From NCBI GenBank assembly GCA_963714015.1, contig OY970223.1:2528001-2592000 (forward strand): 64,000 nucleotides of DNA, in the 5' to 3' direction. This DNA is from Vulcanimicrobiota bacterium. GTDB taxonomy: Bacteria; Vulcanimicrobiota; Vulcanimicrobiia; Vulcanimicrobiales; Vulcanimicrobiaceae. Of the stretch, positions 22,464-54,519 are shown in pieces. Each line of letters opens with the position of its first letter. Positions within the stretch are counted from its first letter, which is position 1. The translations under genes and the position numbers were made by a program. The notes below the pieces were generated by a model. The model searched no databases. It was not told where the DNA came from and worked only from the letters and a program-made list of their open reading frames with translations.

Positions 22464-22468
22464 AATGA

Positions 22469-25055: not shown

Positions 25056-25180
25056 GTCGGATATTCCAGTAGTACAATTTATGGGCATCCCCAGCGGAGC
25101 CCCGGGTACTATCGAACAGGTGTTCGATGCATCGCTCTAGAAGTGAACGGGTCCTCCACCCATCGGAGGAAGGAGCCTCA

Positions 25181-28100
25181 ATGAAATTCCGCCGCACCTA
25201 CTCTGCTCCCGGCGATCCCTACGCCGGCCTCACGTTCGAACCCCGCACGTCGCGCATCGTCAACCCGGACGGATCGGTAATTTTTGAGGCCAAAGACGTG
25301 ATGGTCCCGGCCGGCTGGAGTCAAGTCGCCGTGGACGTCCTCGCGCAAAAATACTGCCGTAAAGCAGGCGTGCCCAAGGCGCTCAACCGGGTGCCCGAAG
25401 ACGGCGTGCCGGAGTGGCTGTGGCGCTGCGAACCTGCAAACTCCGAATTCGGCGCAGAGCGCGATGCGCGCCAGGTTTTCAATCGCATGGCGGGCTGCTG
25501 GACGTATTGGGGATTCAAAAACGGATATTTCGACACCGAAGAAGATGCGCGCGTCTACCACGACGAGATGTGTGCGATGCTGGCGCGCCAGATCGGCGCA
25601 CCGAATTCGCCTCAATGGTTTAACAGCGGTTTGCATTGGGCGTACGGCATCGCCGGTCCGTCTCAGGGTCACTATTACGTAGATCCGAAGACCGGCGAAT
25701 GCAAAGCTTCGACCAGCACCTACGAGCATCCGCAGGTAAGCGCGTGTTACATCCTTTCGATTGAAGACGATCTCGTGAACGAGGGCGGAATCTTCGACGG
25801 AGTCATTCGCGAGGCGCGCATCTTTAAAGGCGGCTCCGGCAGCGGCGCCAACTTCTCGAAGATTCGCAGCGCCGGCGAGAAACTCAGCGGCGGCGGGACG
25901 AGTTCCGGCCTCATGTCGTTCCTGAAAGTTTTCGATCGCGCCGCCGGCGCCATCAAATCCGGCGGCACTACGCGACGCGCCGCCAAGATGGTCGTGCTCA
26001 ACGCCGATCATCCGGACATCGAAGAGTTCGTCAACTGGAAAGTACGCGAAGAGCGCAAGGTGGCCGACCTCGTCATCGGCTCGAAGATTTTCGAGAAACA
26101 AGTTAACGCAATTATTCGCGCCGCGCACGACACGCGCGTGCCCGAGCAAGCGCGTCTGGACGCGGAGTTGAATCCACACTTGCGCGATGCGATGCGCAAA
26201 GCGCTCGTCACGGGCGTGCCCTCCGGCGCAATTCAAAGTGCGCTGGACTACGCGCGTCAAGGATACACGTCACTGGAGATAGAGCAGTACGACACCGGCT
26301 GGGATTCCGAAGCTTACGCGACCGTAGCGGGTCAGAATTCGAACAACTCCGTGCGCCTGACGAACGCGTTTTTCGACGCCATCGGCAGCGACGCGGATTG
26401 GGATCTCACGTCCCGCACGACCGGCCGCGTCGTCAAGAAAATCAAAGCACGAGACCTTTGGGATCAGATCGGCGTCGCCGCCTGGCAATGCGCCGATCCC
26501 GGCCTGCAATTCGACGATACGCTGCAAGAATGGCACACGTGCTCGAACGACGATCGCATCAACGCGACAAATCCCTGTAGCGAATACTGCTTCATCGACG
26601 ATACGGCATGCAATCTCGCATCGCTGAATCTCGTGAAGTTCCTCGAGGACGACGGCGTTTTCAATGCGAAGCGCTTCGCGGAAGCATCGCGGTTTTGGAC
26701 GACGACTCTCGAGATTTCCGTCACCATGGGGCAGATGCCGTCCAAAGCGATTGCGCAAAAGAATCATAAGTACCGGACGTTGGGCCTGGGTTACGCGAAC
26801 CTGGGAACGCTGTTAATGCGTTTGGGTCTGCCGTACGATTCGGAGGAAGCCTTCGGCTGGTGCGCGGCCATCTCGGCGCTCATGACCGGCACTGCGTATC
26901 GCACCTCCGCGGAAATGGCGCAGCAAATCGGGCCGTTCGCTCGTTTCGAGCAAAATGCGTCTTCTATGCTTCGCGTCATTCGCAACCATCGCCGTGCCGC
27001 GTACGACGCCGCCTCGGATGAGTACGAAGCCCTCACGGTCAAACCCGTAACACACGCTCCTTCACTTTTCACGCAAGAAGTTTGGTCCATGGCGCGCAAA
27101 ATGTGGGACGAAGCGCTTGCTATGGGCGAGGTCAGTGGTTATCGCAATGCCCAAACGGTCGTGATCGCTCCGACTGGAACCATAGCTTTGGAAATGGACT
27201 GCGACACAACGGGCATCGAACCTGACTTCGCTCTCGTCAAGTTCAAGAAGCTCGCCGGCGGCGGTTATTTCAAGATCGTCAATCAGTCCGTCGAATCCGC
27301 GCTACGGCGCCTCGGTTACAGTGAGCATCAGATCGAGGAAATCGAGACCTTCGCAAAAGGTACGGGTTGCCTGGAGGGAGCACCCCACGTCAACACGGCG
27401 ACGCTGAAAGCGAAAGGCTTTGACAATGAAGCCATCGCGCGCATCGAAGCGGCGTTACCCGGCGCCTTCGAGCTACCGTTTGCGTTCAACAAATACGTGC
27501 TCGGCGAGGGCTTCTGCAAAGAACACCTCGGCTTAACCGACGATCAGCTCGGCGACTGGAACTTCTCGATCTTGCGCGACGGCCTAGGCTTCTCGCAACA
27601 GCAAATCGAGGAAGCATCAGATGTCATCTGCGGTCGCATGACGCTCGAAGGCGCGCCGTATCTGAAGGATGAGCATCTGCCGGTCTTCGACTGCGCGACG
27701 GCCTGCGGTAAGCACGGTTCGCGCTACATTCGGCCGCTTGCGCACGTAGACATGATGGCCGCGGCTCAGCCCTTCGTCAGTGGCGCAATTTCCAAGACGA
27801 TCAATCTGCCGCAGCATGCGACAATCATGGACGTCAAGGAAGCCTACCGCTACGCCTGGGAACGGATGATCAAAGCCGTCGCGCTGTATCGCGACGGGTC
27901 CAAACTCTCGCAGCCGCTCGCGGCAACGTACGATTTGGGCGGCGACGTTCAGGAAGAGGAGCCCGTTCAGACGCCGTACCAGACGCCGATGCAAGTCGCG
28001 GAGCGGATCATCTACCGCTACATCGCCAAACGCCGGCGTCTGCCGGAGCGCCGCAGCGGATATACGCAGAAGGCGATCATCGGCGGACACAAAGTCTACC

Positions 28101-28769
28101 TACGGACGGGAGAATACGACGGCGGCCAAATCGGCGAGATTTTCATCGACATGCACAAGGAAGGTGCGGCGTTCCGATCGCTAATGAACAATTTCGCGAT
28201 TGCCGTCTCGCTCGGGTTGCAGCACGGTGTTCCGCTCGAGGAGTTCGTCGAAGCGTTCACCTTCACGCGGTTTGAGCCGAACGGTCCGGTCGTCGGTCAC
28301 GATCACATCAAGATGGCGACGTCGATCCTCGACTACATCTTCCGTGAACTCGCGGTGAGCTATCTCGGCCGCTACGATCTGGCGCACGTTCAGCCGAGCA
28401 TGGAGATGGACGCGATGGGCCCCGGCGAGGAAGAGTTCGTCTCCGAAGAAACCGGCGAAGTCCATTACATCCCGGCCGGCATTCGCGAGAAGCTGCATCC
28501 CACCAGCACGCACTTGCACCCGGGCGCGCAAGTGCAGAATTCGGCCGTCGCTCCCGCCGTCGAGGAACGCCGGCAAGAACGGCGCGATCCTGCACCGGCG
28601 TCAGCCGCCACGGGCGTCGCTACTGCTCCCCGATCGGAGCAAATCACGGCCTCTCGCGCCAAGGGTTACACCGGAAACGCGTGCAGCGAGTGCGGACAAT
28701 TGACCATGGTTCGCAACGGCGCTTGCGAGAAGTGCGACAGACTGCGGAGCCACATCGGGGTGTAGTTGA
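25181..28769 (+). CDS. nrdJ: Adenosylcobalamin-dependent class II ribonucleotide reductase (one extra base near 28741)
   Basis: 'PNSPQWFN', 'SACYI', 'TNPCSEY', 'IAPTGTI', 'ISKTIN'; the C-terminal CxxC...[14 protein letters not shown] is restored by removing one base. Confidence 0.96.
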
Positions 28770-28944
28770 AAAGGTCCGGTATTTCATCTAATGTTACAAT
28801 TCGGCTCGCGGGAGTGGTGCTCGTGAGCCGCTGAAAACAAAGGGCGATCGACGAATGTCGGTTACCCTTTGGCGTTCAGCCTAAAGGTTTTCCCGGATTT
28901 GCGTAACGCAAGGAGTTACGTTCGTAGCGTTTAACGTTACGCCC

Positions 28945-30043
28945 ATGGATGGAGCATTATCGCTACCTGCCGGTGCCCGCGTCGTGCTGCCTGCCGATGT
29001 CGCCTTCCTCGACCCCGAAGAGCATATCTTCGCCGCGATGCTGGAGGGATGGAGACGACAACAGCAGAGTCGAGCCCTTCGAAAGGACACGATAACGGGG
29101 CGCCTCAAAGTGATCGCGAGATTTCACGCATTCACGGATCGATATCGGTGGCAGTGGACTGCGCAGGACGCCGTTGATTTTGGCGCGGATCTCTCGGGCA
29201 GAGTCGCTCTAAGCACGCTGCGGCAATATCAATGCGCGGGCCGACTTTTTTCCGATTATATTACTGATCCGCGCTATGAGTGGGTCGAAGAGTGTACGCG
29301 GCGCTTTGGGGCAGCGCCGATCCAGATCTGGGACGAATGGAACACGGCAGCCCATACAAGTGAATTCGAAGGTCTCCCTGCCCGCCGCCCGTTGACCTTT
29401 GAGGAAATCCAACACCTCTTCGATTACGCGGATTCTCGTTTTGCGAAGATTCGAGCTGACCGAAAAAGGGATCCCTGTCAGCGTTCCGAGACGCAGTCAT
29501 GTTCAAAGTTGCGTATGCTTATGGGCTGCGCCGACGCGAGGCGTGCCGACTGGATTTGGCAGACTTTCGAGCCAATCCGACAATGAAACGCTTCGGCCGC
29601 TTCGGCGCTCTGCACGTGCGCTATGGCAAAGGCGTAAAAGGAAGCCCTCCGCGCCGACGAGTTGTCCTTACGGTGCCGCAATTCGGCTGGATCGTCGACG
29701 TCATCGAGCAATATTTGCATGAGATTAGACCGCAGCTTGATCCCGGTGGCCATCCCGGCCTTTTCGTCAGCGAGCGTCGCGGCTATGTGACTCCGAAGCG
29801 CCTTGGAGAACGTTTTACGCAGCTTATCAAGGCTGCGAAACTGAGCGACGAACTTGAACTACATTGCTTGAGACATAGTGCTATTCTACGCATCTGGCGG
29901 AATATGGTTACGATCCGCTGTTCATACAGCACCAGCTCGGCCACACCTACGCCTCGACAACATCAATCTATACGCATGTTAGCAGCGATTTCAAGAATCG
30001 GCAAATCGTCAAAGCTCTCGAACGTCTCTACAAGAACAACTGA
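28945..30043 (+). CDS. Tyrosine recombinase/integrase (frameshifts near 29466 and 29880)
   Basis: Reconstructed catalytic set: 'YGLRRRE' (R), 'YGKG' (K), 'HCLRHS' (HxxR), 'QLGH' and 'SIYTHV' (Y); stop tga at 30041-30043. Confidence 0.9.
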
Positions 30044-30049
30044 GCACCT

Positions 30050-30379
30050 ATGACTAAGAAAATGTCGGCTAACTGGAAACTACGGGACCGCCTGGAAGAA
30101 CGCTGCATTCATTCAACGGCGGATCTTGTTCCGCTGCTAGCGGAGCGCGGCATACACCTGTCTCGTATGCAAGTCTACCGTTTGGCGGCCCAGGAGCCGC
30201 AACGCATATCACTAGATGTCCTTGCAGCTCTTTGCGATGTTCTCGAGTGTACGCCCAACGATCTAATCTCCATTTCCGTCTCCAAGAAGCAACAGCGTAA
30301 GGCCGTCGGCGAAACTCGAGCGGTGCCAGGAAACATTCGGCCGATACGCGCTAACATCCGTAAGCCGCACGACGACTAA
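30050..30379 (+). CDS. Cro/C1-type helix-turn-helix protein
   Basis: 'WKLRDRL...LSRMQVYRLA...ISLDVLAALCDVLECTPNDLI'. Confidence 0.88.
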   Translation: MTKKMSANWKLRDRLEERCIHSTADLVPLLAERGIHLSRMQVYRLAAQEPQRISLDVLAALCDVLECTPNDLISISVSKKQQRKAVGETRAVPGNIRPIRANIRKPHDD

Positions 30380-30385
30380 AAGCCC

Positions 30386-32658
30386 GTGCCTTACGAAAAG
30401 CGTGTTTACTTACCCGCTTTGTTGCTTGAGCTTTCCAAAAGCATTCCGTCTGTCTCGCAGAAGCAACTGAGGAGCTTCATCGTCAAGGCCATGCCGGATC
30501 CGCACTTCCACGGCACAATGCTTCGCTATGTCCAAAAGCATCCATACGCGCTGCGTTCTGGCCGAAGCGACATGCCACCAGCGATGATTCGCTTCGCTGA
30601 TCTGCTCGTCCGACACGGCGTACCAAACATAAAAAGGCCCGTTTGCGCTGTCTGTAACGAAGCCAAGACCCTGCCGTACAAACACGCGAGCGGTCGAGTT
30701 TGCGGAGCCTGCTTTGTGTCGCGAATTAATCTCGCAAATTGCTCCAGGTGTCATCGCCGACGTCAAATCACAACGCGCGATGAGAACGGGCCTATCTGTC
30801 CGTTGTGCTGGGGTAATGACGCACGAAATCTAGCAGCATGCACGGTATGCAACACCTACGGTCCCGTCGCCGTTCGCCCTAAAGGAAAACCGATTTGCCA
30901 GCTTTGTTACGATCGCCCACGGCGGCGCTGTGCTGATTGCAAAGCGCTTCGATACATCCACAGCACTAAAGAGGGACGGGATGTTTGCAGAGATTGCTAC
31001 TCTGCTCGTCGTCGCAACGTTGAATCCAATTGCATAGTCCGACATCGGAACACGCGCCGCCGTTCTTGCACATCTTGCGGTAAAACGCGCGCGTGCGTAG
31101 ATTATCTCACGGATAGACCCCTCTGTGTACCGTGCGCTGGCCGGCCGCACCGAAGATGTGCCGGTTGTAAAGACGCCCGTCCTGTTCAAGCAGTATGGGA
31201 AGGGGGACCCGTTTGCAGCACGTGTTATGCCACGTATTTAGACGAGCTGCGCAAATGCTCGCGCTGTCTCAAGATGGAACAGCTCGTGCCAACGCGCGAG
31301 GGTGCCCTCTGCCGGCCATGTCTTGGCACAACAGGCTCGCGATACCTGTGTGAAATGTCGCGGCTACGACAACCTGTACGAAGCGGGAACGTGCGCTCGA
31401 TGTGTCCTTCAAGCGAGAGTAGAGGAGATGTTGTCCGGCCCGGACGGCGCGATTCCCATCGATCTGCAACCTGTGCTGCGAAATCTTGTAGATGATAGGG
31501 ACCCACGTGCTGTACTCGGTTGGCTTCGAAAATCCGGTGGAGCGACGCTTTTGCGCGAGATCGCTCGCGGGAAGATTGAACTTTCACACGCCGAGCTCAA
31601 CCGAATCGGCTTCAGCAAACCAGTTATCTTCCTTCGTTGGCTACTGATTGCTAGCGGCGTGCTGTCCGAGAACGGAGCCACCGCAAGTCGACTCGAGGTT
31701 TGGCTTGACAGACTTCCTGAAGGACATCGATCACAAAGACGTGTTCATTCTTCGCACGTATGCCAACTGGCGTCTATTCCCACGGCTCCGCCGCAAAATT
31801 GACCGAAATCTGTTGACAGATTCCGGGATCAAATGGTGTCAAACTCGCCTACGCGTAGCTGCTGCGTTCCTTTCTTGGCTGCGCGAGAGCGATATACTTC
31901 TGCAATCGTGTTCGCAGCATCACATCGATGCTTGGCTAAGCAGCTCCCCATCGACAGCATATGGAATTCGCGACTTTGTTCGTTGGACATGGAGTCGTAG
32001 GTTCTCACGAAAGCTTACGGTGCCCCGTAGGTCTATAAAGTTGCCGGCCGCTGCCATCGACGAAAAGCAACGATGGGCAGAAGTAGAAAGGCTACTGCAC
32101 GATAACGCACTTCCTTTGGATCTGCGGTTGTCCGCGCTGCTAGGGCTAGTATTTGGACAACACTTAAGTCGTATCTGCTTGCTCACGGTCGAGAACGTGA
32201 CGCGAAAGGGGTCCAAGATATACGTAAAGTTCGGGAAAGATGATGTCGTCATGCCGCCAGACATCGCCCGTCTGGTGAACCAACAAGCGCAGATCAGCGA
32301 ACAGAATCCGAAAGGGCTCATGCCTAATGAGCAACGCTGGCTCTTTCCGGGGCAGGGATTCGGTACACACCTTACGCCGGACGCCTTAGGGCGTCGTCTC
32401 ACCGCCCTAGGCATCTACATGCGCCCTGCTCGGAATGCTGCACTGATGCATCTCGCTGCGCGTCTGGAACCGGTAATTCTGGCACAAATGCTGAATCTGC
32501 ACGAGAACGTTGCCGCCGAGTGGTGCCGCGCCGCTGGCCGCACGTTCAACAAATATGTCGAGCTTCGGGCATCCGCGAGTACCCTTCCACACGAGGGCAG
32601 TCGCAAGCTTCGAGATATGGCTGTTCCATCAACACCGACGTCCAGGAGATACAAATGA
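30386..32658 (+). CDS. Large Zn-finger-repeat protein with a C-terminal degenerate tyrosine-recombinase-like domain (frameshifts near 31335 and 31712)
   Basis: 16 CxxC motifs over ORFs 30386..31495 and 31302..31802; C-terminal 'GLVFGQHLSRI', 'WLFPG', 'RPARNAALMHLA...LAQMLNLH...KY'. Confidence 0.75.
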
Positions 32659-33053: not shown

Positions 33054-34909
33054 ATGACCAGGCAATACGAGCCGATGGTCCTTCATAACATTGGCTTTGC
33101 GTTGCGCCGTCTCGAACAAGACTGCGCGCCTCATCAAGAACTGCGCGAACTGGCGCAAAACGCAATTGACGCTCACCGCAACCAAAAACGAATCGACCCG
33201 CATCATAGGGGCGAGATAGTTGTAGACGTAGTTGGCCGCTCGTTCCCGAGTATGGCTTCAAGATGTGCTTCATCGATAACGCGACCGGCATGACGGGCGA
33301 CGACATCCAGAACTACATCAATCGGCTCTTCCGTTCAGGCAGTGAACAAGCCTTAGACAAGAATTACGGAATCGGTGCCAAGGTTGCCGCCGGCGTCAGA
33401 AATCCAGAAGGACTCACATACTTTTCCTGGGTCGATGGCAAGGGCGTCGTTGCGAACCTGAAATATTTTGCGGAAAACGCTGACTGGGGCCTGGAGCCTT
33501 TTGAACGCCCAGATGGTACCTACGGTGTATGGGCGCCCGTCGCGGATTCTGTAAAGCCGAAGCAAATCGACCGGCACGGCACGATGGTCGTTCTTCTTGG
33601 AAAATCTGCGGATCACAACACGATGCTGCCGCCGGAGAACGTTACAAGCAAGACGCGGTGGCTTTCAAAGTATTTCAACCTGCGCTATTTCCGCCTTCCC
33701 GATGGAGTGGAGATGCGGGTTCGCCTCTTCACATCTCCGGACCCCGATCAATGGCCAACTGTCGAGGTAAACTCCAATCCACTGGGTGCGCAGCTTAACA
33801 GAGTCACCGGACAAGAATACATATTGAACAAACTCGCGTCAGCGAAGGGAACGGTTCGGCTCTCCGGTTGCAAGGCGCACTGGTGGATAATGCCGGCAAG
33901 AGAAGACCGCAGAGACGTAGGTCATCAGCAGCATCACGTTGGTGGACATATCGCAGCGCTTTACCAAGACGAAATCTACGACATGCGAATCGGCAACGAC
34001 GGGTACAGCGAGTTGCAGCGTTTTGGCGTCCTATTCGCATACAAGCGCGTGATAATCTATCTAGAACCGGACCCAAGCACGGTGCTTCCCGACACGTCAC
34101 GTTCTCGACTTCTGATGGATGGTCAACGCCTACCGTATGTCACCTGGGCGCGAGAATTCTCTGAAAACATGCCCAAAGCTATCAAAGCCTTGGACGACGA
34201 GATCCTTGCGAAGGCGGAAAAAACACCACGAGCCGAGTCCATTGCTAAACGCCTTGAGCGCATTAAACACCTTCTTCAGCCGAGCCGCTATCGTCGGTCT
34301 ACTAAAGGCGCGATACCGGTTGACCCTGATGACTTGATTCTCGGTGGAATGCCGGAGAGCAAGAAGGATGGGAAAGTCACTCCTATCGGCAACGGGCGCT
34401 CGGGCGGCGTGGCTTCCAGTGGAAGACGTCTTGCTGCATTCATCTCACCAAATGATGAAGCGCAGCAGCGCGCTACTCCCGCAGTTGCTCCGCTCAATAT
34501 CCCGATGATCGAATGGGTAAGCGTTGCAGCAGGAACTCGAGAGCCGGGCTTTCAGGAAGACCGTGCAGCATGGTATCTTCCAGAGTCGCGCACAATATTC
34601 GTGAATCGAGACTTCCGCGGCTTTGCCGATATGCATCGCGACTTCTTGAAACGGCACGGTGCAGTTCCGAACGCGGCTATCAAGATCTGGCATGCAATAG
34701 AAGAGTGGGTCGGCCAGCAGCTGTGCGAGGTTGTCATAGGAATCGAGGGTTACGCCGGCTCGCAATATTGGCTGCCGGATAGCGTTAACGCAGCCTTGTG
34801 CCCCGAGGCCTTAACTGCGGCCGTGATGTCCCGCTGGTTCGTGTACGGACAGGTTTCCCGCGCACTTGGAAGTGTCTTGCGTACGCAGGACGCGGAACAG
34901 ACCGCGTAA
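33054..34909 (+). CDS. GHKL (Hsp90/MORC-like) ATPase (frameshift near 33231)
   Basis: N-box 'LRELAQNAIDA', G1 'IDNATGM', G2 'NYGIGAK', G3 'HGTMV'; TAAGGAG RBS. Confidence 0.8.
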
Positions 34910-34970
34910 GCGCCGTCTGATCTGCGATGCACGCGCTCACTTCACGGCCGTTCTTCTGCAAGGTGGTACA

Positions 34971-37900
34971 ATGATCGACTTGCCGCTACCGCTACTCCAG
35001 GGCATTGAGAATGGATCCTGCGTGCTCTTTTTGGGAGCTGGCGTAGGATCACATTACGCCCGCACTGGGCAAACGATGCCGGACTCTGCATCGCTTGCAT
35101 TAGAGATAGTCAGCATTTTCAACTGGACACGCGCGGCAGCATAAATCTCGCCGAAGTTGCGGAGTTTGCTGAACTTCGCAAAGGGAGGGCTGCCCTAAAT
35201 GCGTTTGTTCGCGAGCGCCTCTCAAACTTCGCTCCGGACGAAATAGCCCAATGGCTTACCACCGTTCGTTGGCGAAGCATATTTACGACCAACTACGACG
35301 ACGGTATTCTCGCCGCGTATAGGAATAATCCACACCCGCCTCAATTAGCGGTTCCAATAACATCTACCGGTGGTATTCGATACTGCGACCGTCGCTTGGA
35401 AGTGCCAGTCTATTTTTTGCACGGGTTCATCGGCGCGGGTGATGAGTCGCGTCTGCTCATAACGGAGACTGACTACATCCGATTCAGGGACCGCCGCGAA
35501 ACTTTGTTTTCTCTGCTCAAGGAACAATTCGCGCAGTCGACGTTCCTTTACGTCGGCTACTCGAATCGCGACCAGAATTGGAAGACCCTCTTGGATGAGG
35601 TTCAGCGCGAATTCAGTCCTAAACCCACTCCACTATCATATCGTCTAACTATCGACGAGCCTTCGATGGCGGATGCACTGCTTGAAGCGCGAAATGTCTA
35701 CACGCTGCATTGCTCCCTCTCGGACTTTTGTATGGCTGCGCGCGCGCAGCTTCATGCTGTTGAAATGACGTCTTCGGCTTTGGAGAAGCTCGAGCGCGAT
35801 ATCCCGCCCGACTTTGCTGAAGACTTCACCGACAATCCAGTTGCCGTGGCTCGTTTCTTCAACTCCTGGCAGTATGTCAATCAGTGCGACTTTTCCCAGC
35901 CTTCAAATGCGCACGCTTTTCTTCGCGGCGACCGGCCAAACTGGGGTCTCATCGCTCAGAAACACTTCTTTCAACGCGATGTCGAGGACCCGCTCTATGA
36001 TGAGATGCTGGACTACGCAACGAGCGGCGCACTACGCGAAAGCTTAACCCTATTGGGTCACGCTGGCTCGGGCGTAACCACTGTACTCATGTCGCTGGCG
36101 GCAAGACTAGTCCGTGAAGGCGCGGGCCCCGTATATTTCCTAAGGCCTGGAGCACAAGTCCTCGAGGGGGATGTGCTATTCGTGGCCCAACGTGACCCTC
36201 ATGTAAAACCGTTCTTCTTTGTCGACAACGCCGCGATCGAAAAAGAGCGCCTTCGACGGCTTGTGCAGCGCGTTCAGAGTTCTCATGCGAACGGGATGCT
36301 CGTCCTCGGAGCACGTCTCAACGAGTGGAGAGAATCCACTGTCCGCCTAGCAACTAAAGAACGTCAACTTCTACAGCTTGGCCCTGACGAGATACCGCGA
36401 CTTTTGACGCTCCTGGAAAACAGCGGCGAACTTGGCGTTCTAGCCGATCTATCCCCCGAACTACGCGTGGTGAAGATTCAACAAAGTAACTCGAACGATT
36501 TGCTCGTGACGCTTCGCGAGGTTACCGAAGGACGCTCCTTTGACGCGATAATCGAGGACGAGTATCTCGGTATCCATTCCGAGCTTGGGCGCCGATTCTA
36601 TCTCATGGTCGCGTGCTTTTTTCAAAAGCACCTATTTGTTAGGGATACGCTGTTAGCGCGACTGCTCGATGTAGATACTGAAGAAATGTTCCGTGAGACG
36701 AACGCAGCCACCGAAGGCGTGGTGCTATACGAAACAGTCGATGAGGCAAACGGCGTGTTCGCCGCAAGGGCGCGGCACCGGGTCATTGCGCAAATAGTTT
36801 GGGAGCGTTGCGGATCGCGAACCGAACGCGAGGACCTTCTGCTACGCGCAATGTCCTTCCTTAACCTCGCTTACAAATGGGATCGCGATGCTTTCGATCT
36901 TTTCGTAAGGTCTGACGAGCTTGTCGATTTTTTCGGAACTCTCGAAAAGAAGACGCGATATTTCGATACTGCGATCAACAAAGACCCCGACAATCCTTAC
37001 GTGCGCCAGCACTATGCGCGAATGCTTTCCAGGGAAGGTCGTGACTTGCTTGCGCTCAGTCAAATCAACGAGGCCCTTTCCATAAACTCTAACCCGAGAG
37101 CGCTGCACCACACCAAAGGCCTGATCTTGGCGCAACTCGCTCTCGGCTCGCCTAGTCCGGATGTCGGTCGACGCTATCTTCTTCAAGCCGAGGATGCATT
37201 CAACACTTGCATTCAAAAGAGCCCTCGGGACGACTACGGTTATACTGGCCTCGCGCATCTGTACCTCGAATGGGCTAAGCGATGTGAGAACGTCGATGAC
37301 GCGACCGGCTACACCGCCCGAGCGGAGTCCCTGATCAGCGATGGACTGCGTCGCGCTAGCATCCACGAGTCTCTGTGGCTTGAATCAGCCCGCGTTGAGG
37401 CATACCTTGGTGATTCTGAAGCACGAATCCAAGCGCTTGAGAAGGCGCACGGGAGCTCGCCAAGCAGCCCGATCGCAGCGTTCTTGTTAGCACGCGCGTA
37501 TAGACGCGACGGCAGAGCTGCAGAGGCCGAACAACTCTTGCAGCCAATCATTCAAACCGCCGTTGAAGAGTTCCGCGTCTTTATAGAGTACGCGAAATGC
37601 TTGATCGCTCTAGGGAAGCCGTATAAAGAAGCTGCGGCAGTCCTCCGCTTGGCGTACCTTTCGGGCCTTTCTGATCCTCGCTATATTGCGACGCTCGGCG
37701 GCATGCTTTGTCTAGGCAAGGACTATACGGCAGCACTAGACGTCTTCAGCGAAAGCGCGAAGCGCGGCTTTTCATTGGGCGAACGCACGCGGATTTTCTA
37801 CCGACCGCGTATAGACGGTAGAGGTGACCGAATCCGCCTCACGGGACGGATCAGCAGCGTCAAAGGGAACTATGCATTTATCATAGCTGCGGATTTCGGA

Positions 37901-38110
37901 ACCGATGTTTTCTGCCCTCGCTCGCGTCTTGATGATGTGCTGACAACTGAGGGCACATTCGTCGAGTTCGATCTTGCTTTCAGTTCGCGAGGGCCTATCG
38001 CAGACAGCATAAGCCTCGCCCCAAAGGCGGCAGCAATGGCCACCGTGACTCCGCCTTCAGCCGGCGTTGACCAGCTACCTGATGAACATGTCGGCGGATG
38101 CGATTCTTAG
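34971..38110 (+). CDS. SIR2-like + STAND-type P-loop NTPase + TPR + C-terminal cold-shock/OB-fold protein (frameshift near 35111)
   Basis: 'VLFLGAG', 'IFTTNYDD', 'YFLHG' and 'LYVGYS' (SIR2); 'GHAGSGVTT' and 'FFFVDN' (Walker A/B-like); helical repeats; 'GRISSVKGNYAFI...DVF...VEFDL..SSRGPIA' OB-fold. Confidence 0.82.
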
Positions 38111-39090: not shown

Positions 39091-39128
39091 GAATATGTAC
39101 TGGTCGGAATATGTACCCCTACCAGTAA
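39091..39128 (+). repeat. Junction site copy A
   Basis: GAATATGTAC TGGTCG GAATATGTAC CCC TACCAGTAA. Confidence 0.9.
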
Positions 39129-39309
39129 ATGATACGCTTCGGCGGCGTGGCGAATCGTGGCGCCAGAATACGCCGGGTTTTGAATACCCGGAGGCAGTAC
39201 CCGTTATATCGAGCGACGGCGACGAGGCGGCGCCCTCTTACTTCTTTTTCCGCCAATATATGTACGGCTGAAGGTGTAACGCCGGACAGTTCAGGAACGT
39301 AGATTTCGT

Positions 39310-40692
39310 ATGCTGCAATTGATTCTTGCTGCCGCGCTTACGGAGCCCACCCAGCACAATTATTCCACCGCCATGAAGAGCGGGAAGATTCCCGGAATGC
39401 AGGTTGTAGTCGTCGACCACGGTAAGGTCATCCTCGACGATGCGCTGGGTGTCAAAAACGTCCTCACTCAAGCGCCGGTCGACGTACACACGCGTTTCGA
39501 GATCGGTTCGATCACCAAACAGTTCACCGCGGCCGCTATCCTGCAATTGCGCGAGCGCGGAAAACTTTCACTAGACGATGTACTTAGCAAGTACGTTCCG
39601 CAATACGTGCGTGGCCGGAAGATTACGTTGCGGCAAATGCTTCTACAGATCAGCGGCATTCCGGATTATAGCGAGACTAGCACCTTCAACAGCCTGGGCG
39701 CCTACCGGAACGGCCGAATTGTAATTACGAAGCGTGGTGACCTCGCGGCGGTCGTTGAGATCATCCAAGGCAAGAAACTCGACTTCACACCAGGTACGAA
39801 GTGGGAATACAGCAACACGAATTACTATATGCTCGGCTATATCGTGCAGCGTGTTTCAGGAATGCCATGGAGCGCATATATTCGGCAGCATATCTTCGCG
39901 CGTGCGAATATGAGCGAGAGCTCATTCATGCAGGACGAACCGGGCATGGCTGACTTGGCAACCGGTTACACCCGGTACAAAAATAGAATCGATCCGACTG
40001 GCAATTATGCTGGATGGGCCGGCGGAGCTGGCGCGATCGTTTCAACCGCCGCAGATCTAGCGAAATGGGACGCAGCACTATTTAACGGCAAGATCATCAG
40101 CGCGGTGGATTTAAAATTGATGACCTCGCCAGGACCGTTACCGGCGCTTGACGGAAACGCGCGGTATGGCTTCGGCTGGGTGATCGACAGCTACGACGGA
40201 CAGGCGCGCTTGTGGCATAACGGTGGCACGATCGGCTTCAGCGCGAGCAACGAAGTCTATCCGAAGCAGTCACAAGCGATTGTCGTACTGAGCAATCGGG
40301 AGAGCGGCACCGACTCAATCGCGCAGAAGACGTTTGACACGCTGCATCCAGAGTTCGTGGCGACGCAAAACAAAGCCGCGGCGGGCGAAGACCGCGCGGT
40401 CACCGCGCGTATCAAGATCACGTATTCCTCGCTCATGTCGGGGCATCTCGACCGAGCCCAGTTCACCAAAGAGGCCCAAAAGGGCATCACGCCTGATGCT
40501 GTGGCGCCATTGAAGCAGCTTGTCGCGCCTATGGGGCGAGCAGAAACATGGGTCTATCGCGGCAGTCAGGAGAAAAACGGCGCAACGACTTACACGTATC
40601 GCGTGACGTTTAGCAGCGGCATGATGCTGAACGTATACATGACGTTGGACAAAAACAACAAGATTGCTGCGTATTGGGTATCGCCGACCTGA
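39310..40692 (+). CDS. Serine hydrolase, beta-lactamase/class C PBP family
   Basis: SxxK 'GSITK', 'YSN', 'HNGG'. Confidence 0.9.
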   Translation: MLQLILAAALTEPTQHNYSTAMKSGKIPGMQVVVVDHGKVILDDALGVKNVLTQAPVDVHTRFEIGSITKQFTAAAILQLRERGKLSLDDVLSKYVPQYVRGRKITLRQMLLQISGIPDYSETSTFNSLGAYRNGRIVITKRGDLAAVVEIIQGKKLDFTPGTKWEYSNTNYYMLGYIVQRVSGMPWSAYIRQHIFARANMSESSFMQDEPGMADLATGYTRYKNRIDPTGNYAGWAGGAGAIVSTAADLAKWDAALFNGKIISAVDLKLMTSPGPLPALDGNARYGFGWVIDSYDGQARLWHNGGTIGFSASNEVYPKQSQAIVVLSNRESGTDSIAQKTFDTLHPEFVATQNKAAAGEDRAVTARIKITYSSLMSGHLDRAQFTKEAQKGITPDAVAPLKQLVAPMGRAETWVYRGSQEKNGATTYTYRVTFSSGMMLNVYMTLDKNNKIAAYWVSPT

Positions 40693-40819
40693 GGATAAAC
40701 AGCACTTCACGAAATGTTGGGCGGTGGCCGTTATGCCGTTGCCATCAAACGACGACAATGCTTGTGTGGGTGTCGGTCCAAAGCGCGCGGCGTAAGCATC
40801 GCTAAACTGATACGGAGCG

Positions 40820-41971
40820 TCACGCGAGTTCCGGCGGTGGATGCGAATGGCGTAACAAGGAATCGAGAAGCGCCAGGACATCCGGGAATCGCTCCCTTAC
40901 GGCGCGGTCGTTGCCGCCGGCCGGTACCTGGAACTCGCGCACGTTGAATCCGGTGAACACCACCGACGACCCTCGAAGCGGATCGCCGTTCTCCATGTAA
41001 TGGTACGGAAAGTTCGTGAAGAATACGATGGCACCGGGTAGGCCGCTCGTCTGCGGGTTCTGCTCCAGGCGTTTGACCTGCGAGCCGAGCCTATCGAACC
41101 ATCCGGACTCGAGAATGTGCGCCTCGCTCGGCGGGACGTTGATATCGATGAAGACGAGTCGCTCATGCAATGCATTCTTGCGCAACGCTGCCACGAGCAG
41201 ACTCGTTATGTCGGCCTCGATCTCCACAAGCCGCCCGGGCGTCCCCGGATACCCAAGGAATCCCGCACGATGGCGACTCTTGGCCTCGACAGAATACTGC
41301 TTGCCCGTCTTCATGTAGGTCGCGGTGAATTCGCAATGCGTTGATGACCGATTGCTTTCATCTTCGAGACCGATGGAAAAGCCGGCGCGGACGAGCGCGG
41401 CCGCAACGAATGCTTCGTATCGAGCACCCTGAAACTGATCCTTCCGCTGCAAGCGGTCTACCAGGCGCTGAAGCAGCAGCGAATGATGCTCAAGCGTGTA
41501 GATATCGTACGCAAACGCTAGCAGTGCCGATATCTGCGCTGGTGGATTGTCGATTTTATTGATATCGCCGAGCGCGACATCGGAGCGGTGCGCCGCCCAG
41601 AAATCGAACCAGACCTGATACCACTGCATGAGCGGATGCCGATCCTCGAGTGGCAGCGACTGTTCGTTCTTGAACCAGTCTTTCGCGAATACGGCTCCGA
41701 TATACGAAAATAGGAAGTCGTGGAACGTCTTCCATTTGTGGTACAACAGGCGCGACCCGACCGCGACGAACGTCTGGCCCGCGTGGCCCATCCAGATCGG
41801 CGGCTTGACGTAACCGTATTTTTCGATGCGCTCGGCCTCTTGGCGCTGCGCTTCAGCGAGTTTCAACCGGACACTTTCGGGCATCGTCAACCGGCGTGCT
41901 TTTTCCAAACAGCAGCGCTTATGCTTCTTCCCGCTGCCGCACGGGCAAGGACTATTTCTACCAATCTTCAT
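40820..41971 (-). CDS. SEC-C motif protein with a possible PD-(D/E)xK-like C-terminal domain
   Basis: 'KIGRNSPCPCGSGKKHKRCC'; 'GARYE...HCEFTA...VEAKSR'. Confidence 0.75.
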   Translation of the reverse strand: MKIGRNSPCPCGSGKKHKRCCLEKARRLTMPESVRLKLAEAQRQEAERIEKYGYVKPPIWMGHAGQTFVAVGSRLLYHKWKTFHDFLFSYIGAVFAKDWFKNEQSLPLEDRHPLMQWYQVWFDFWAAHRSDVALGDINKIDNPPAQISALLAFAYDIYTLEHHSLLLQRLVDRLQRKDQFQGARYEAFVAAALVRAGFSIGLEDESNRSSTHCEFTATYMKTGKQYSVEAKSRHRAGFLGYPGTPGRLVEIEADITSLLVAALRKNALHERLVFIDINVPPSEAHILESGWFDRLGSQVKRLEQNPQTSGLPGAIVFFTNFPYHYMENGDPLRGSSVVFTGFNVREFQVPAGGNDRAVRERFPDVLALLDSLLRHSHPPPELA

Positions 41972-42085
41972 CTTGACCAAGGCCCGGCCCGCGAGATAGG
42001 GCAGCCTCGACCATTATATGGCCTACACGCTGGGCATGGTCCGCCGCTTTCCACTGGCCTGCGCAGGCCCAGCGCTCAAGGGATT

Positions 42086-42658: not shown

Positions 42659-42697
42659 GAATACGTACCGGTCGGAATATGTACCCCTTACCAGTAA
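42659..42697 (+). repeat. Junction site copy B
   Basis: GAATACGTAC CGGTCG GAATATGTAC CCC TTACCAGTAA, then TAGCTAGA. Confidence 0.9.
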
Positions 42698-42959
42698 TAG
42701 CTAGATAGTTAGAATGCGTGAGGCACGCATTATAGGACTTACGCATATTCCGCACTCCCTAGAACCAACGAAAAGCCGACGAACTACGCGTCGGCTTTTC
42801 GCATTCGGGACAGCGCTTTCGGATATTTGATTGCGTGAGTCAAGGGCACGCTAGGCCTATCCTTGACCTGGGTGGATGCCGCTGCTCCTAATGCTGGTCG
42901 TTCAACCGGCCGATACGACCCAGAGTCATATTCGGCACTTATTTGTAATGGAGCACACA

Positions 42960-44003
42960 TTGCGCAAACACGTTTTTGGATTGGCCCTTGCGGGGGCGTC
43001 GGCTATGCTGGTGGCCTGCGGCGGCGGATCCACGCCGTCCGCGATCCCCACGGCATCTCCCGCCCCGAAGCAAACGGCTTCTCCAAGCCCTAAGCCGACC
43101 GCTTCGCCGACGCCGACTCCGACGACCGGCCCGAATTCGCAGATGATCTTCGTGGCGGATCGCACCACCAACGCGATCCTCGGATTCGCCGCGAACGCGT
43201 CCGGCAACGCCGCTCCGACCATCGACATCACGAGCTCCGCGTCGGGCTTCGGTCCAGCACTATCGCTCGCGATGAGCGCAAACGGCACGATGTACGAAGC
43301 CGGCGACAGCACCGATTACATCAACGTATTCAATTGGGGCGACAACGGCAACATCTCGCCGGATTCATGGGTGCAGAACAGCAACCCCGTGACGAGCGAG
43401 GGAGTCGCGGTCGATTCGAGTGGAAACATGTACGAATCTTCGTACTCTTTCCCATGCGAAATCGACGAGTACGCCGCCGGCAGCAGCGGCACGATGGCTC
43501 CCACGAACGTTCTCTCGGGAGCGAATACGCAACTGACTTTCCCGACGGACATGGCGTTCGACTCGAGGAATCGACTGTACGTCGGCCAGGGGGGCAGCTC
43601 CATCCTGATCTTCGCGGCGGGCGCGACGGGCAACGTCGCACCGGTTGCGACCATTGCCGGTTCGAACACGACGTTGACGTCGGTAACGGCGATGTCGTTC
43701 GACGCCGCTGGCCGCCTGCTCGTGGCGGATGCCTCGGGCAAGATCCTGGTGTTCGCGGCCGGGGCTACGGGCAACGCAACTCCGGTGCAGACGATCTCGG
43801 GATCGAACACCGGTCTCTCGGCTCCGAGCGGCGTCGCGGAAGACGCCCAGGGCGGAATCTGGGTTTCCGACAACGGTTCCTCGCCGAACACGACGGGACT
43901 GTATCGGTTCTCTAAGAACGCGAACGGCAACGTCGCGCCGATCAGCACGATCAAAGGCGCGGCGACGCTGCTTGTCGACCCGTTCTACGTGCAATTGCAC
44001 TAA
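42960..44003 (+). CDS. Lipoprotein with NHL/beta-propeller-like repeats
   Basis: Lipobox 'LVACGGG', Pro/Thr linker, repeated 'FAAGATGNxAPxxTIxGSNTxL' units. Confidence 0.85.
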   Translation: MRKHVFGLALAGASAMLVACGGGSTPSAIPTASPAPKQTASPSPKPTASPTPTPTTGPNSQMIFVADRTTNAILGFAANASGNAAPTIDITSSASGFGPALSLAMSANGTMYEAGDSTDYINVFNWGDNGNISPDSWVQNSNPVTSEGVAVDSSGNMYESSYSFPCEIDEYAAGSSGTMAPTNVLSGANTQLTFPTDMAFDSRNRLYVGQGGSSILIFAAGATGNVAPVATIAGSNTTLTSVTAMSFDAAGRLLVADASGKILVFAAGATGNATPVQTISGSNTGLSAPSGVAEDAQGGIWVSDNGSSPNTTGLYRFSKNANGNVAPISTIKGAATLLVDPFYVQLH

Positions 44004-44022
44004 GGCGCGACGGTGTAGAAGC

Positions 44023-44057
44023 GAAACGGCCCGGGTTTTCGGACTCGGGCCGTTTTC
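44023..44057 (+). terminator. Intrinsic terminator
   Basis: gaaacggcccggg-ttttcgga-ctcgggccgttttc hairpin right after the lipoprotein stop. Confidence 0.75.
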
Positions 44058-44434
44058 GTTCGTTCGCTGGAATCTGCGCAGGGCTCGCCGCGCGGCGGCG
44101 GTATCGGAAGGGAAACCAATGAACCGTAGATGCCAGGAAAAACAAACGCCTATCGCGGCCGTCAGTATTATACGCTGACGTATAAGAGTATCGCCGGTCA
44201 ACCGTTGCCGGCCGGAATCCGAACCCGGATATGAAGTCCTTTTCCCGTGACGCACGCGCGGAACCCGTTCGAAGCCGGGCGCTCCGAACACAAACGGCAT
44301 TACGGCTAGACTCTTTCCGATGACGCCGGCCTACAGAAGCTCGACCACCAAAAACCATAACAGGACTTAGATGAGCCCTTCGAGTCAAAACCGGACTTAC
44401 GTTCAAAATGTCACCAGGGCCTAGTTGAAATGCT

Positions 44435-44473
44435 GAGTATGTACCGGTTGGAATATGTACCGGTTACGGGTAA
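44435..44473 (+). repeat. Junction site copy C
   Basis: GAGTATGTAC CGGTTG GAATATGTAC CGG TTACGGGTAA, then AAGCTAGA. Confidence 0.88.
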
Positions 44474-44554
44474 AAGCTAGAACCTTCCGGGTAATCCACT
44501 TAAGAGGGCGACGGCGTGAAGGCGCGGCCGCTCTCTTCCCATTTCTTGGTCGGT

Positions 44555-45073
44555 CTACAAACGAAACAGCATCGCAAGGCCAGATGAGAGAACCTTCATC
44601 ATAAACGCCGGTGAATAGCCTTTGTACGAAGGGATGTCGTCCGCGAATACCTTGCCATTCTGCAGAAAGCTGGTGCAGATACGCATCTGTATCGCCGGCG
44701 CATTAGGCCCGAGTCGCTCGCGGTAGATTGGGACCCAATGCCGCGCGTCATCGAAGCGCATCAAGACCGCCGAATTGCAGCAGCAGGCGACGACCCGATT
44801 TGTCTTGGGATTATGCTCGACCTTATAGTCTTTGAGGAGTTCGGAGCCCTTGACGTAGGTCACACGATCCTTCCGGTAAAGGACATATTCCGTGCCGCCG
44901 TCTGCCCGTCGCACGGAAGGCGCATTCGGCAACGCTTCGATGCGGCTCGAACCTTCCTGGCACGTGTCGCAGTAACAAGCGAAACTACCGATCGGCACGC
45001 CCTTAAGCACCAAAGCGACGGACCCGCAAGAACACTCAGCAAATACCGTGTTGTCGGCGGCTTGAAGCGTCAT
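44555..45073 (-). CDS. GFA/CENP-V-like Zn-binding protein
   Basis: 'CSCGSV', 'CYCDTCQ', 'ACCCNS' cysteine pattern. Confidence 0.75.
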   Translation of the reverse strand: MTLQAADNTVFAECSCGSVALVLKGVPIGSFACYCDTCQEGSSRIEALPNAPSVRRADGGTEYVLYRKDRVTYVKGSELLKDYKVEHNPKTNRVVACCCNSAVLMRFDDARHWVPIYRERLGPNAPAIQMRICTSFLQNGKVFADDIPSYKGYSPAFMMKVLSSGLAMLFRL

Positions 45074-45140
45074 GGGTGTTCGTGTGCCGTGAGGGAGAAA
45101 TTATCCCTCTTTGCGTCCAAGTGTCAACCACCTGACACAT

Positions 45141-45179
45141 GAATACGCCCACGTTGGAATAGGTGCACCTTACCAGTAA
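45141..45179 (+). repeat. Junction site copy D (degenerate)
   Basis: GAATACGCCC ACGTTG GAATAGGTGC ACC TTACCAGTAA, followed directly by a copy of the island left-end motif. Confidence 0.8.
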
Positions 45180-45478
45180 AGCCCCGGATTTTCATCAGAT
45201 GTTACAATTCACCGTCTGATGATCGTGCTCAGAAACGCGTGATTGAAGGGGTTGTCGGCAATACACCGTCAGCCTCTTCTTCTTTTGCCGCCTGCATTTG
45301 AAAGGGCACGTAATGCCGGCCGAACTTTTAACCGCCACGCCGCGCCGCCACGTGCATTCACCGAAACTGACTTATGTCAGCCATCCCCGACATTACGCGT
45401 CATCTTCTTGCGGTCGTGCTCCAAATGCCGGCGCGGAACGTTTTTACCAACGCGAACTGAATTAACTTCGATGGGCCG

Positions 45479-45952
45479 TCAAAGTGGCGCCATGCAGCAC
45501 ATTGAACTAATGCTGCCACCGGCCCAATCGTACCGAACGTAAACACAAGAACCCGCGCGTTCCCCGTGATGAGCGGAAAATATGCTTTGCCAATCTCCAC
45601 CGTAGCCGCCCTCAACTTGTCCCACGCTAATGGGCGCACTCAGGAGAATCCCTACCGACCGCCCACGAACCCATTCGACCCTAAGGGGCGCTGGAAGGAC
45701 GGGGAACGCCAACAACGCCGAACCGGATCGAACGTTGCTGATATGAGTTCGTTTCAGCGCAAACAAAAGTTCCTTAGCTTCCGTGTCCTGAAGTTGTTTG
45801 GAATCGAAAAGAGGCAATAATACTTCACACGGGGCGAGAGTGACATAGGCAAGAGCAGCACATATAACTACGAGAGCAACCGTCCCCGCTACGATAACAG
45901 GGCGCAAGTTCACCAAACGTTCCGAACTTTCGTTTCTATAAACATGACTCAA
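45479..45952 (-). CDS. Hypothetical membrane-anchored protein
   Basis: 157 aa with an N-terminal hydrophobic helix. Confidence 0.45.
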   Translation of the reverse strand: MSHVYRNESSERLVNLRPVIVAGTVALVVICAALAYVTLAPCEVLLPLFDSKQLQDTEAKELLFALKRTHISNVRSGSALLAFPVLPAPLRVEWVRGRSVGILLSAPISVGQVEGGYGGDWQSIFSAHHGERAGSCVYVRYDWAGGSISSMCCMAPL

Positions 45953-46037
45953 ATAGAACTACCATCTTCAAATTCCAAAGCGTTTAGACCGGCAACAGGT
46001 CCATCAATGAACGTGTGAGCTGAGCTCATTTACGTAT

Positions 46038-46276
46038 CCGATGATTCCGCGCGGACGATTGATCGGCGCGCTTTGCTGGGGCCGAAGCACTCGCAAGAGT
46101 CTTACGCGCCCGACGAGTCCGATGCAATAGAGGATCTGGCGGACCATGTGGCCGGCGTGCTCGATGTATTGGGCCGCCCGGCTTCAGGCGACGGCGCCGT
46201 TTTAACCGAATTGAAATCATGCACCGCGCGTTGGCTGATCTTTTCATCGCTCCGATCCGAAATCAAACGCAGTTAG
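46038..46276 (+). pseudogene. Remnant of a GAF-like C-terminal domain
   Basis: 'PMIPRGRLIGAL/LGPKHSQESYAPDESDAIEDLA' with no upstream gene body. Confidence 0.35.
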
Positions 46277-46392
46277 ACTGAGCGGCTTTTGGTGAGAATT
46301 CGCGGCGAGCATAGGGATGCCGCACCTGTAAAGGCCCCGGAATTTTTAAACGGTAGGCGAATGCGGGGCCTTGTTCTTGCATCACGGTTGGC

Positions 46393-46845
46393 TTACAAGC
46401 AGTTAAGGTTCGGGACGGACATTGCATCTGACGAACTCTTGTGCGGGTCGAAACTATATGACATGAAGCGCAGCTTGACTAGCGGCCGCTCAGAAGTGTA
46501 GGCCTCATCCGAGTGACCCGCGACCAGAACACCACGCAAAGTGATGTCCCATCCGCTGCCGGAATTGTCAACAATCATCGCTTTCAAAATCCGCTTGCGC
46601 TGCGACGCCAACCTTTGAAACGTTCTCAAATCTACACGCTTGGTTAAGCCAATAAACAACACGGTCGGAGAATCGCCTTTTCCCCAAAAATTCATCTTGT
46701 TCCCGGTCACGGTGAATAGGTCGACAGCTCCGGTTTCCTTGGAGCAAAATACGGCGCCGGCGACCGGGGCCGGAAAACTCGCGACACAAACGAGGGTCGA
46801 CACGATGATGAGCAGTGATAAAATGCTTTGTCGCAACGAAATCAC
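46393..46845 (-). CDS. Secreted hypothetical protein
   Basis: 150 aa with a signal peptide. Confidence 0.5.
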   Translation of the reverse strand: MISLRQSILSLLIIVSTLVCVASFPAPVAGAVFCSKETGAVDLFTVTGNKMNFWGKGDSPTVLFIGLTKRVDLRTFQRLASQRKRILKAMIVDNSGSGWDITLRGVLVAGHSDEAYTSERPLVKLRFMSYSFDPHKSSSDAMSVPNLNCL

Positions 46846-47443
46846 CCGTCTCCAACCGTCGGCTAACTCCCGAACAAATACGAACGTCGGCTTCTTACCC
46901 TAACCCAACATGGCACCCTCCTTTCCAGGGACGCTCGGATTATGCCCTACGGTGGCGCGGCGTGATTCAAGTACAAAAACTATGATACGCCGTTGTTCCG
47001 ACGCAATTGAAAAGGCCATCGTCCATAAGCAATGACGATAGTGAGGAGCCCGATTGCGTTCTTGTCTGCAAAGTGACGGTACAACGCCATGGGGGTCAGT
47101 TGGCCGTCTTTCGTGGGCTCGCGCATCAAGCGCGACGGTATCGCAACGTTCAAACCACCGCTTCGCAGCGCGAAGGATCCGCTGCTTCGTGCTCAGCCTG
47201 GGGATTAGTATACGGCGTATACATGGGCCTGAATTTGCAAGGCCCTCACCCCAGGCGCCGGCATGTCGTTTGCGGCGCCGACATTTGGGTCCGGGCAAGA
47301 AGAAATCGATCAGGGGTAAAATACGAGAAAAGGCAACATTGTAATGCGGCCAACGACCGGTCACGATGCGGCGTCCGAAATCGGGCCGCTCGACGGCTTT
47401 CAACTAATTTCAGGGGAGTAGTGATATCAGTAGACGCAAATCG

Positions 47444-47815
47444 ATGTTCTTCGCAATCCTATGCTGTGCTCAGTTTCCAGGGTGCAATCAGTCAACGCCT
47501 AATGCGGCTGGATTTATTCCGCTGGCGGCTCCGGTTCTTTCATGGACAGCCCCGTGGGTGCAAGGACCGCAAACCGGAACCATCGCATTCCAGTCGATCG
47601 GCCAGAACGTGACACTGTCGGCGAGCGCCGCTCAGCCCGGCGGTTCAATGCCGCCTTACACATTCACACCCGGAAACTGCGTGACGATGTCCAACCAGTC
47701 AACCAGTGGTAATACGCAAAATGTCACGCTTACCGCCGCCAGCGGGGGGTCCTGCAGTGTGTCGGTTAAGGGCACTCTCAGCTCGTCAACCTCCATACAG
47801 GTGACGGTACCCTGA
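47444..47815 (+). CDS. Small secreted protein or lipoprotein, Ig-like
   Basis: Ser/Thr/Gly-rich beta-strand pattern with a Cys pair; resembles 62614..63114. Confidence 0.5.
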   Translation: MFFAILCCAQFPGCNQSTPNAAGFIPLAAPVLSWTAPWVQGPQTGTIAFQSIGQNVTLSASAAQPGGSMPPYTFTPGNCVTMSNQSTSGNTQNVTLTAASGGSCSVSVKGTLSSSTSIQVTVP

Positions 47816-48003
47816 TAGACATGAAAGATGATGTCGCCGGAAATGCCGCAAAACGTTTGCGGGAAGCAATCTGCTCGCGGACCGGCGCGGGCCTCAGCTC
47901 GCGCTTAATCAGCGGCTCGGCTTGCCAAGCGCCCCGGCTCAAAAAGGAAAGTCTGCGCACAGCCAGGGCGGACGGCACGCGGCAATCAGCGAACGGGCGG
48001 GAC

Positions 48004-50811: not shown

Positions 50812-50851
50812 ATTCGACGCGGTCGCTGCCCGACGCCGGCCGGTAGGACGA

Positions 50852-52223: not shown

Positions 52224-52286
52224 GCTAGCGTCGGGAACCGTATATGTGTTGAAAGTCGACTTTGGGGTCTATCAGAGGGGAGATAA

Positions 52287-53654: not shown

Positions 53655-53886
53655 CTACCGCCGTACCTACACATTGTGAGCGAACGTCATACGGCACGGT
53701 ATTTCGTCGCCTTGTTAAACGCCTTACCAATCGGACAGCATGTCGAACTCAACGGCAACGATCGCGGCAATGGCCTGCTCTCCAACCTCGTCCCGATAGG
53801 CCCGAGGTCCGGTCGCACGTCACGTCTTTCCAGCGGGAGCAAGTTCAGTGCGCGAGCGAAATATCGCCCAACGGAGGAATTGCCCG

Positions 53887-54480: not shown

Positions 54481-54519
54481 CCGCGGGGGCCGACGGGAGA
54501 CCGCACCGCGTCGTCTTTT

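Follow-up and report, generated by a model that had tools for sequence, protein, structure and literature searches.

What are the hairpins that follow the junctions between units stacked downstream of nrdJ in the window, the 64,000-nucleotide stretch of DNA analyzed here? The initial annotation held that the downstream halves of five segments, among them one at 39129..39254, fold alike despite sequence divergence, and read them either as a promoter plus a structured leader or small RNA or as a single-strand site analogous to attC. The strings it quoted, including a shared tail, GCGACGGCG and four -10-like hexamers, are all present where it placed them, and the segments are indeed unit starts: the first adjoins the nrdJ stop codon and the other four follow a right-end motif.

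The target gene, nrdJ (25127..28769, +), encodes a B12-dependent ribonucleotide reductase, as recognized by NCBIfam model NF005736 above cut-off, by its 3' end pattern and by its relatives; its frame is broken near the 3' end in the assembly studied. The insertion point of the units lies directly 3' of its stop codon (28767-28769). Unit A, which bears the recombinase, has a left end (28770..28944, +) that starts at the base right after this stop and comprises a box (28780-28798), hairpin 1 (28802-28830), a terminator-like hairpin 2 (28839-28870) and two further boxes (28902-28920 and 28923-28941) upstream of the integrase start. Its cargo includes a gene with SIR2-like, nSTAND NTPase5 and TPR regions (34970-38110), apparently broken near its start and likely an anti-phage gene, and a 548-aa ORF (33263-34909) that has no Pfam match. 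Right end 1 (39091..39127, +) has the form GAATA-N7-GTYGGAATA-N7/8-TACCAGTA. The start of unit B (39128..39254, +), the segment originally flagged, holds two decayed features, a right end (39166-39206) and a terminator-like remnant (~39210-39250). This old right end ranks sixth genome-wide with the right-end matrix and equals a genuine right end at 21 of 26 nt, so that the 'hairpin 1' assigned to the segment overlaps it. The cargo of unit B (39310..41980) consists of a beta-lactamase-family serine hydrolase (+) and a SEC-C protein (-).

Right end 2 (42659..42696, +) is followed by two 8-nt footprints (42697..42712, +) that resemble the last codons of nrdJ (Ser-stop). Next stands unit C (42713..44428, +), which belongs to a second end family and has its own left end, its own right end (~44360-44421), a bidirectional terminator-like hairpin (42770-42800) and an NHL-repeat cargo (42876-44003); it is closed by a copy of the final 7 nt of nrdJ in the host genome, TAGTTGA (44422-44428). 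A cargo-less 44-nt unit (44429..44472, +) holds little beyond right end 3 (44435-44472), and a unit of identical type lies between two right ends in G148, a genome of a different genus. Unit D (44473..45178, +) is made up of a footprint (44473-44480), a short left end, a hairpin (44502-44537), a convergent GFA gene (44555-45073, -) and right end 4 (45141-45178), and recurs in G148 with 98.7% identity over 753 nt. Left end E (45179..45286, +), with a box (45188-45206), a weak hairpin 1 and a terminator-like hairpin 2 (45245-45279), is of the type that G148 and G152 have ahead of their integrase (83-85% identity); no integrase lies downstream of it, and no right end was detected for this unit. 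The variable region runs on past E (45286-64000), with no further right ends in it; at least six relatives have the stretch 55334-55790 behind nrdJ, and one has 46029-46276 there. On the far side of nrdJ, at 22375-22750, stands a tRNA-Ser(GGA), then two partial 3'-half copies with inverted arms and spacing of 120 and 159 nt; these copies look like remnants of earlier integrations.

The conserved right-end motif, 38 nt in length, closes each unit and occurs four times in the whole genome, each time directly ahead of one of the window segments. A strict pattern finds it in 10/348 family genomes, an improved pattern in 22/234 related genomes (reversed control, 0), and a shorter pattern in 29 metagenome stretches; viral contigs gave 0 matches. 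In 18 of the 22 motif-bearing genomes it lies downstream of nrdJ and shares its contig and strand; one has a weak nrdJ match, and three have the motif on separate contigs, near their ends. Among the 45 units that are closed, size ranges over 0.56-20 kb, with a median of 1.8 kb. The same left segments can directly adjoin nrdJ in one genome and come after a right end in a different one. Footprints of 8 nt matching the nrdJ end, by a pattern written after examples had been seen, follow 9/47 right ends and 5/59 stops (G237, locus L040, being one of the five post-stop cases), as compared to a background of 1.3%, and are absent after the other right ends. No conclusion hinges on G237, and G424 (L049) was viewed only. 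Every unit would thus once have sat directly behind nrdJ, as we infer from these traces. In G221 (L150:1538-1590), about five nrdJ-end-like footprints are stacked after one right end, which suggests repeated insertion and loss.

The recombinase unit carries three genes in a row: a tyrosine recombinase (28945..30053, +; Pfam PF00589), frameshifted in the assembly studied; a Cro/C1-type HTH protein (30050..30379, +; Pfam HTH_26); and a large third protein (30386..32658, +), in pieces here and about 720 aa long in relatives, with a Cys-rich N-terminal part. All but the HTH gene are frameshifted in the window, but the trio is intact in relatives, whose integrase keeps the full catalytic motif (invariant R199, K232, H310, R313, H336 and Y345). 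The third protein has no family match, no full recombinase catalytic motif, a profile match to the integrase at only E 0.2, and no relative with a solved structure that we could find. Inside its gene, at 31754-31779 (-), lies a right-end-like double box that lacks the terminal TTACCAGTA and has the fifth-best score in the genome. The integrase is present in 6/401 genomes of the phylum, and in five of those six the trio stands directly behind the nrdJ stop. It was not detected in 20 other motif-bearing genomes (17 of the 22 plus three from the strict-pattern set; 82-97% complete), in searches that had no positive control of their own but used a query that matches three relatives with E-values no higher than 1e-32. 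Other phyla yielded three trio matches, one of them behind nrdJ (actinobacterial contig L028). On actinobacterial contig L029 (7970-8400), the trio and a similar box follow a broken-off tyrosine-recombinase-like gene, not nrdJ, and the trio there appears to have a different target. The third protein also matches 238 plasmid records, mostly from Streptomyces and Rhodococcus, with the same order of the trio. The cargo in G053 (L009:13801-15956) includes a nucleotidyltransferase and a nuclease, and we take it to resemble a CBASS-type operon.

The end family of unit C is also present in G119 (L012:100-200), G148 (L008:9540-9650), G210 (L072:315-460) and G253 (L170), where its ends show repeated boxes of the GCATAA-N6-TTA type, presumably similar to dif. 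It likewise uses the nrdJ stop. No other tyrosine recombinase, as a candidate for this family, was seen in the nrdJ flanks examined.

Part of the proposed common fold stands, namely one terminator-type hairpin. Against shuffles, hairpin 2 scores z -3.9 at 28839-28870, -5.0 at 45245-45279, -5.8 at 42770-42800 and -2.4 at 44502-44537. Four of the five window segments pass a terminator test on the sense strand, B only via an irregular stem, and unit D passes only on the antisense strand, that of the convergent GFA gene. A dereplicated sample (47 post-right-end and 59 post-stop segments, those below 170 nt dropped, first 150 nt scored) has terminator-like hairpins in 22/47 and 30/59 cases, or 52/106 overall, as compared to 28/188 and 35/236 shuffles, 4/47 and 7/59 segments further downstream and 41/250 other ORF ends; the thresholds were revised twice, and the earlier counts (17/47 and 17/59, then 15/47 and 23/59) point in the same direction. 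The sense strand folds better in 35 of the 52, and antisense passes (13/47 and 24/59) fit bidirectional use. Many tails read CUUCUU rather than pure U, and that of hairpin 2 in unit A is short. When a strict consensus is demanded (loop of 3-8 nt, 5 T in 8), a scan misses all four hairpin 2 sites that the initial annotation quoted and shows no excess (22 vs 20.0 +/- 4.5).

The frequency of such hairpins also varies with position relative to nrdJ. In an enlarged set of 61 post-right-end and 68 post-stop segments, 61 of which are unclosed or too short to class, terminator-like hairpins occur in 17/24 first-position units as compared to 8/21 displaced units (Fisher p 0.038) and 8/23 nrdJ flanks with no right end within at least 5 kb (p 0.020), both p values being overstated because genomes and cassettes are related. 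Such a gradient fits a terminator that is needed only beside nrdJ, not an RNA with its own promoter. In the subfamily of left ends typified by 28770 and 45179 (five sequences), 88% of cells in hairpin 2 are paired and 6/14 pairs show two-sided change. A single terminator does not explain why 26/61 post-right-end segments have at least two hairpins, as compared to 24% of shuffles. Overall, hairpin 2 probably replaces the nrdJ terminator that insertion has displaced. Because it is most likely a terminator, the finding as first worded is mostly ordinary, and the alternative that the initial annotation itself had named, ordinary terminators, is the one largely favored by the data (52/106 vs 12-16% in controls).

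The remainder of the common fold is not borne out. Hairpin 1 is stable at 28802-28830 (z -4.0) and 42713-42731 (z -4.7), weak at 39143-39175 (z -1.3) and weak at 45213 (z +0.6, -4.2 kcal/mol), where the winning fold pairs 45213-45222 with the upstream box; the segment at 44473 has a single hairpin only. For the flagged segment (39129-39260), the fold is no more stable than those of its shuffles (z +0.17), and the second hairpin is absent from the minimum-energy structure. Nor can the five segments be aligned as one conserved RNA: pairwise local alignments score 15-43, with a shuffled maximum of 44 and a 99.9th percentile of 34, and 28770 vs 45179 (score 43) alone stands out. Covariation follows the same division, both hairpins keeping their pairing through changes within the 28770/45179 subfamily of five but not across the five window segments. 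Hairpin 1 holds only in this subfamily.

The shared promoter fares no better. The hexamer TACAAT belongs to a palindromic box, TGTAACA-N5-TGTTACA, of which it forms the right half; the box lies 9-14 nt inside 24/106 segments. Ahead of the integrase start the box recurs twice, at spacings (+133 and +154) that are equal in the window, G148 and G152, and the Cro/C1 HTH protein is a candidate binder of the box. A sigma-70 scan reports only 42688 among the five segments and no overall excess. That site, TTACCA-16-TAGAAT at 42688-42715, scores 9 of 12 and spans junction 2, so that the right end and the footprints both contribute to it; it may be due to chance.

A small RNA confined to the one subfamily is the strongest of the rivals, though still unlikely: left ends of the 28770/45179 type would carry a promoter and a two-hairpin RNA of 70-75 nt, ending at hairpin 2 and serving integrase regulation or recombination. 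TGtTACAAT, which has the look of an extended -10, is found in four members, but across the boxes as a whole the TAnnnT hexamer survives in only 4/24 and is gone from 20. G-U pairs number 50/561. Hairpin 1 has 71% of cells paired and two-sided change in 5/7 pairs, the whole structure beats 500/500 shuffles for cells paired, and GTG is invariant in the loop region; these values come from just five related sequences, from which the structure was itself chosen, and RNAalifold favors another pairing for the hairpin 1 region. In E, hairpin 1 reaches only -4.2 kcal/mol. Among box-bearing ends, one stable hairpin is found in 28/28 (73% of shuffles), but two hairpins in just 7/28 (16% of shuffles). At the gathering threshold, an Rfam search of the window returns tRNA-Ser only. 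Neither is there a guide-like match to the target; a guide-RNA idea was rejected upon comparing the 40 nt after the box with 67 nrdJ 3' ends, as evidenced by median z values of -0.4 (sense) and +0.2 (antisense), with z>2 in only 2/28 for each. As a separate observation, hairpin 1 of unit A (28806-28825) equals the nrdJ 3' end of another genome at 17/20 aligned positions (z 1.3), with no such match in other left ends.

Somewhat less probable again is passive capture, in which the hairpins are 3' flanks of host nrdJ genes, or terminators of convergent neighbors, caught along with the units and unselected. This idea overlaps the replacement of the nrdJ terminator by hairpin 2, in that the hairpin is a terminator in both. 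Genomes that lack a nearby right end do have the same hairpin type behind nrdJ (8/23), the hairpin of unit D serves the GFA strand alone, and the left segments split into many unrelated groups. The box-bearing left ends, however, are clearly derived from the element and have a stable hairpin without exception (28/28), and the enrichment in first-position units also counts against unselected carriage. Last, and highly improbable, is the view of the hairpins as folded single-strand sites analogous to attC: it can cite an integron-like layout, in which small units form an array that has a single recombinase, and a strong ssDNA fold of junction 2 on both strands (z -4.9 and -5.9), but the remaining three of the four window junctions fold no better than shuffles (z between -1.2 and +0.1), the 47 right ends have median ssDNA z values of +0.6/+0.2 (right ends and junctions as DNA, on either strand, -0.1 to +0.6 over 47), the joint is conserved in sequence and not in structure, the hairpins do not span the joint but stand 30-130 nt away (stem ends, 46-131 nt), and the integron integrase model TIGR02249 gives two intact relatives 37-53 bits against a cut-off of 265; folds spanning the joint (45/94) were counted with no control and left out of this assessment.

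The model that we consider likely is built on hairpin 2 as a replacement terminator. Site-specific mobile units would insert directly behind the nrdJ stop, each newcomer pushing older units downstream. Insertion would separate nrdJ from its terminator, hence the units would carry one: hairpin 2, acting as an intrinsic terminator for the nrdJ mRNA, would also shield the integrase or cargo from read-through and could stop a convergent cargo gene, such as GFA in unit D. The '-10' would be half of a palindromic protein-binding box, recombination would use a double-stranded, sequence-conserved right end together with the left box, and the recombinase trio would act in trans on cargo-only units. The sequences themselves establish the positions, the ends, the sharing of units and the hairpin statistics, from which termination, binding of the box, mobility and the sequence of insertions are deduced. 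Three public DNA runs cover mere fragments of the region; no informative joints, circles or excision products were seen. A bolder version, to which we give slightly less than an even chance, is that of an independently evolved, integron-like platform, in which a trio present in few genomes would act in trans throughout the family to place cargo-only cassettes at the nrdJ stop via double-stranded ends, not attC, the cassettes bringing the nrdJ terminator and a second end family competing for the site. It is quite improbable that, in addition, a small RNA is made by one of the left-end subfamilies.

The hairpins, then, are ordinary, and it is the surrounding cassette system that matters. The trio is common on actinobacterial plasmids, where it is annotated merely as an integrase, an HTH protein and a hypothetical protein; the nrdJ system supplies it with ends, a target and non-autonomous passengers. 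The cargo-less 44-nt unit, along with cassettes of 0.6-2 kb, suggests minimal needs in cis, which makes the system directly testable. It could become a compact tool for site-specific insertion at the end of a conserved protein-coding gene, rather than a tRNA, and would also account for a hypervariable locus in the family.

Several features recall known systems. Like intrinsic terminators, the hairpins have a GC-rich stem and a pyrimidine/U tail, often with an A-rich stretch in front (bidirectional), about 45-130 nt after the stop codon; in contrast, their loops can reach 16 nt, CUUCUU tails are seen, and they fail the strict consensus scan. Integrating elements can supply a terminator to their target gene. 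Our search of the open literature, to which subscription papers and supplements that may list the trio would be additional, found no description of nrdJ-targeted elements or arrays.

Going by the portions of the sources available, SEs, Tn554 and GInts (PMC10214605, PMC5385486) and GMT islands (bioRxiv 10.1101/2023.03.28.534373) begin at the 5' end with a multi-gene tyrosine recombinase module and, like the nrdJ units, have a fixed target (here the nrdJ stop) and cargo behind the module. A short target-derived footprint marks their right junction (6 bp for SE and Tn554, PMC10214605), and a similar footprint follows 9/47 right ends of the nrdJ arrays. Copy-out movement through a circular intermediate is a further mark of such elements. 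Unlike in those elements as there described, a single catalytic recombinase is joined here by a Cro/C1 HTH protein and a large protein without the full catalytic motif, the target is the nrdJ stop, and there are arrays of cargo-only units (median 1.8 kb). Where those elements have two catalytic tyrosine recombinases, the trio has one full motif only, and the GmtY and GmtZ models give 15-17 bits against cut-offs of 340 and 600. Actinobacterial Tn554-related TBSSR tandems, in the available part of their description (PMC3414803), similarly pair a short and a long gene on actinobacterial plasmids, the long protein carrying a catalytic motif at its C terminus and being joined by a TnpC-like partner; the nrdJ trio, with an HTH gene between the two and that motif lacking, is set apart from them by description, not by sequence comparison.

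Integrons, to the extent covered by the accessible portion of PMC3053210, likewise stack small units at one site, move them between genomes and have arrays that persist with no recombinase nearby. The attC site is described there as palindromic from inverse core to core, with a bottom strand that folds, crossover at the base of the stem and a recombinase that binds it specifically in single-stranded form. The nrdJ arrays have neither a palindromic attC nor an IntI, and their units, unlike the cassettes of that account, have two different ends, take cargo in either orientation and bring their own terminator. With one catalytic recombinase and no attC, the nrdJ system belongs neither to the SE/Tn554/GInt/GMT elements nor to integrons. 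As far as these sources, in the parts available, describe the known systems, it works like an SE, Tn554, GInt or GMT element (PMC10214605, PMC5385486, PMC3414803, PMC8138268, bioRxiv 10.1101/2023.03.28.534373) and shares the layout of an integron array.
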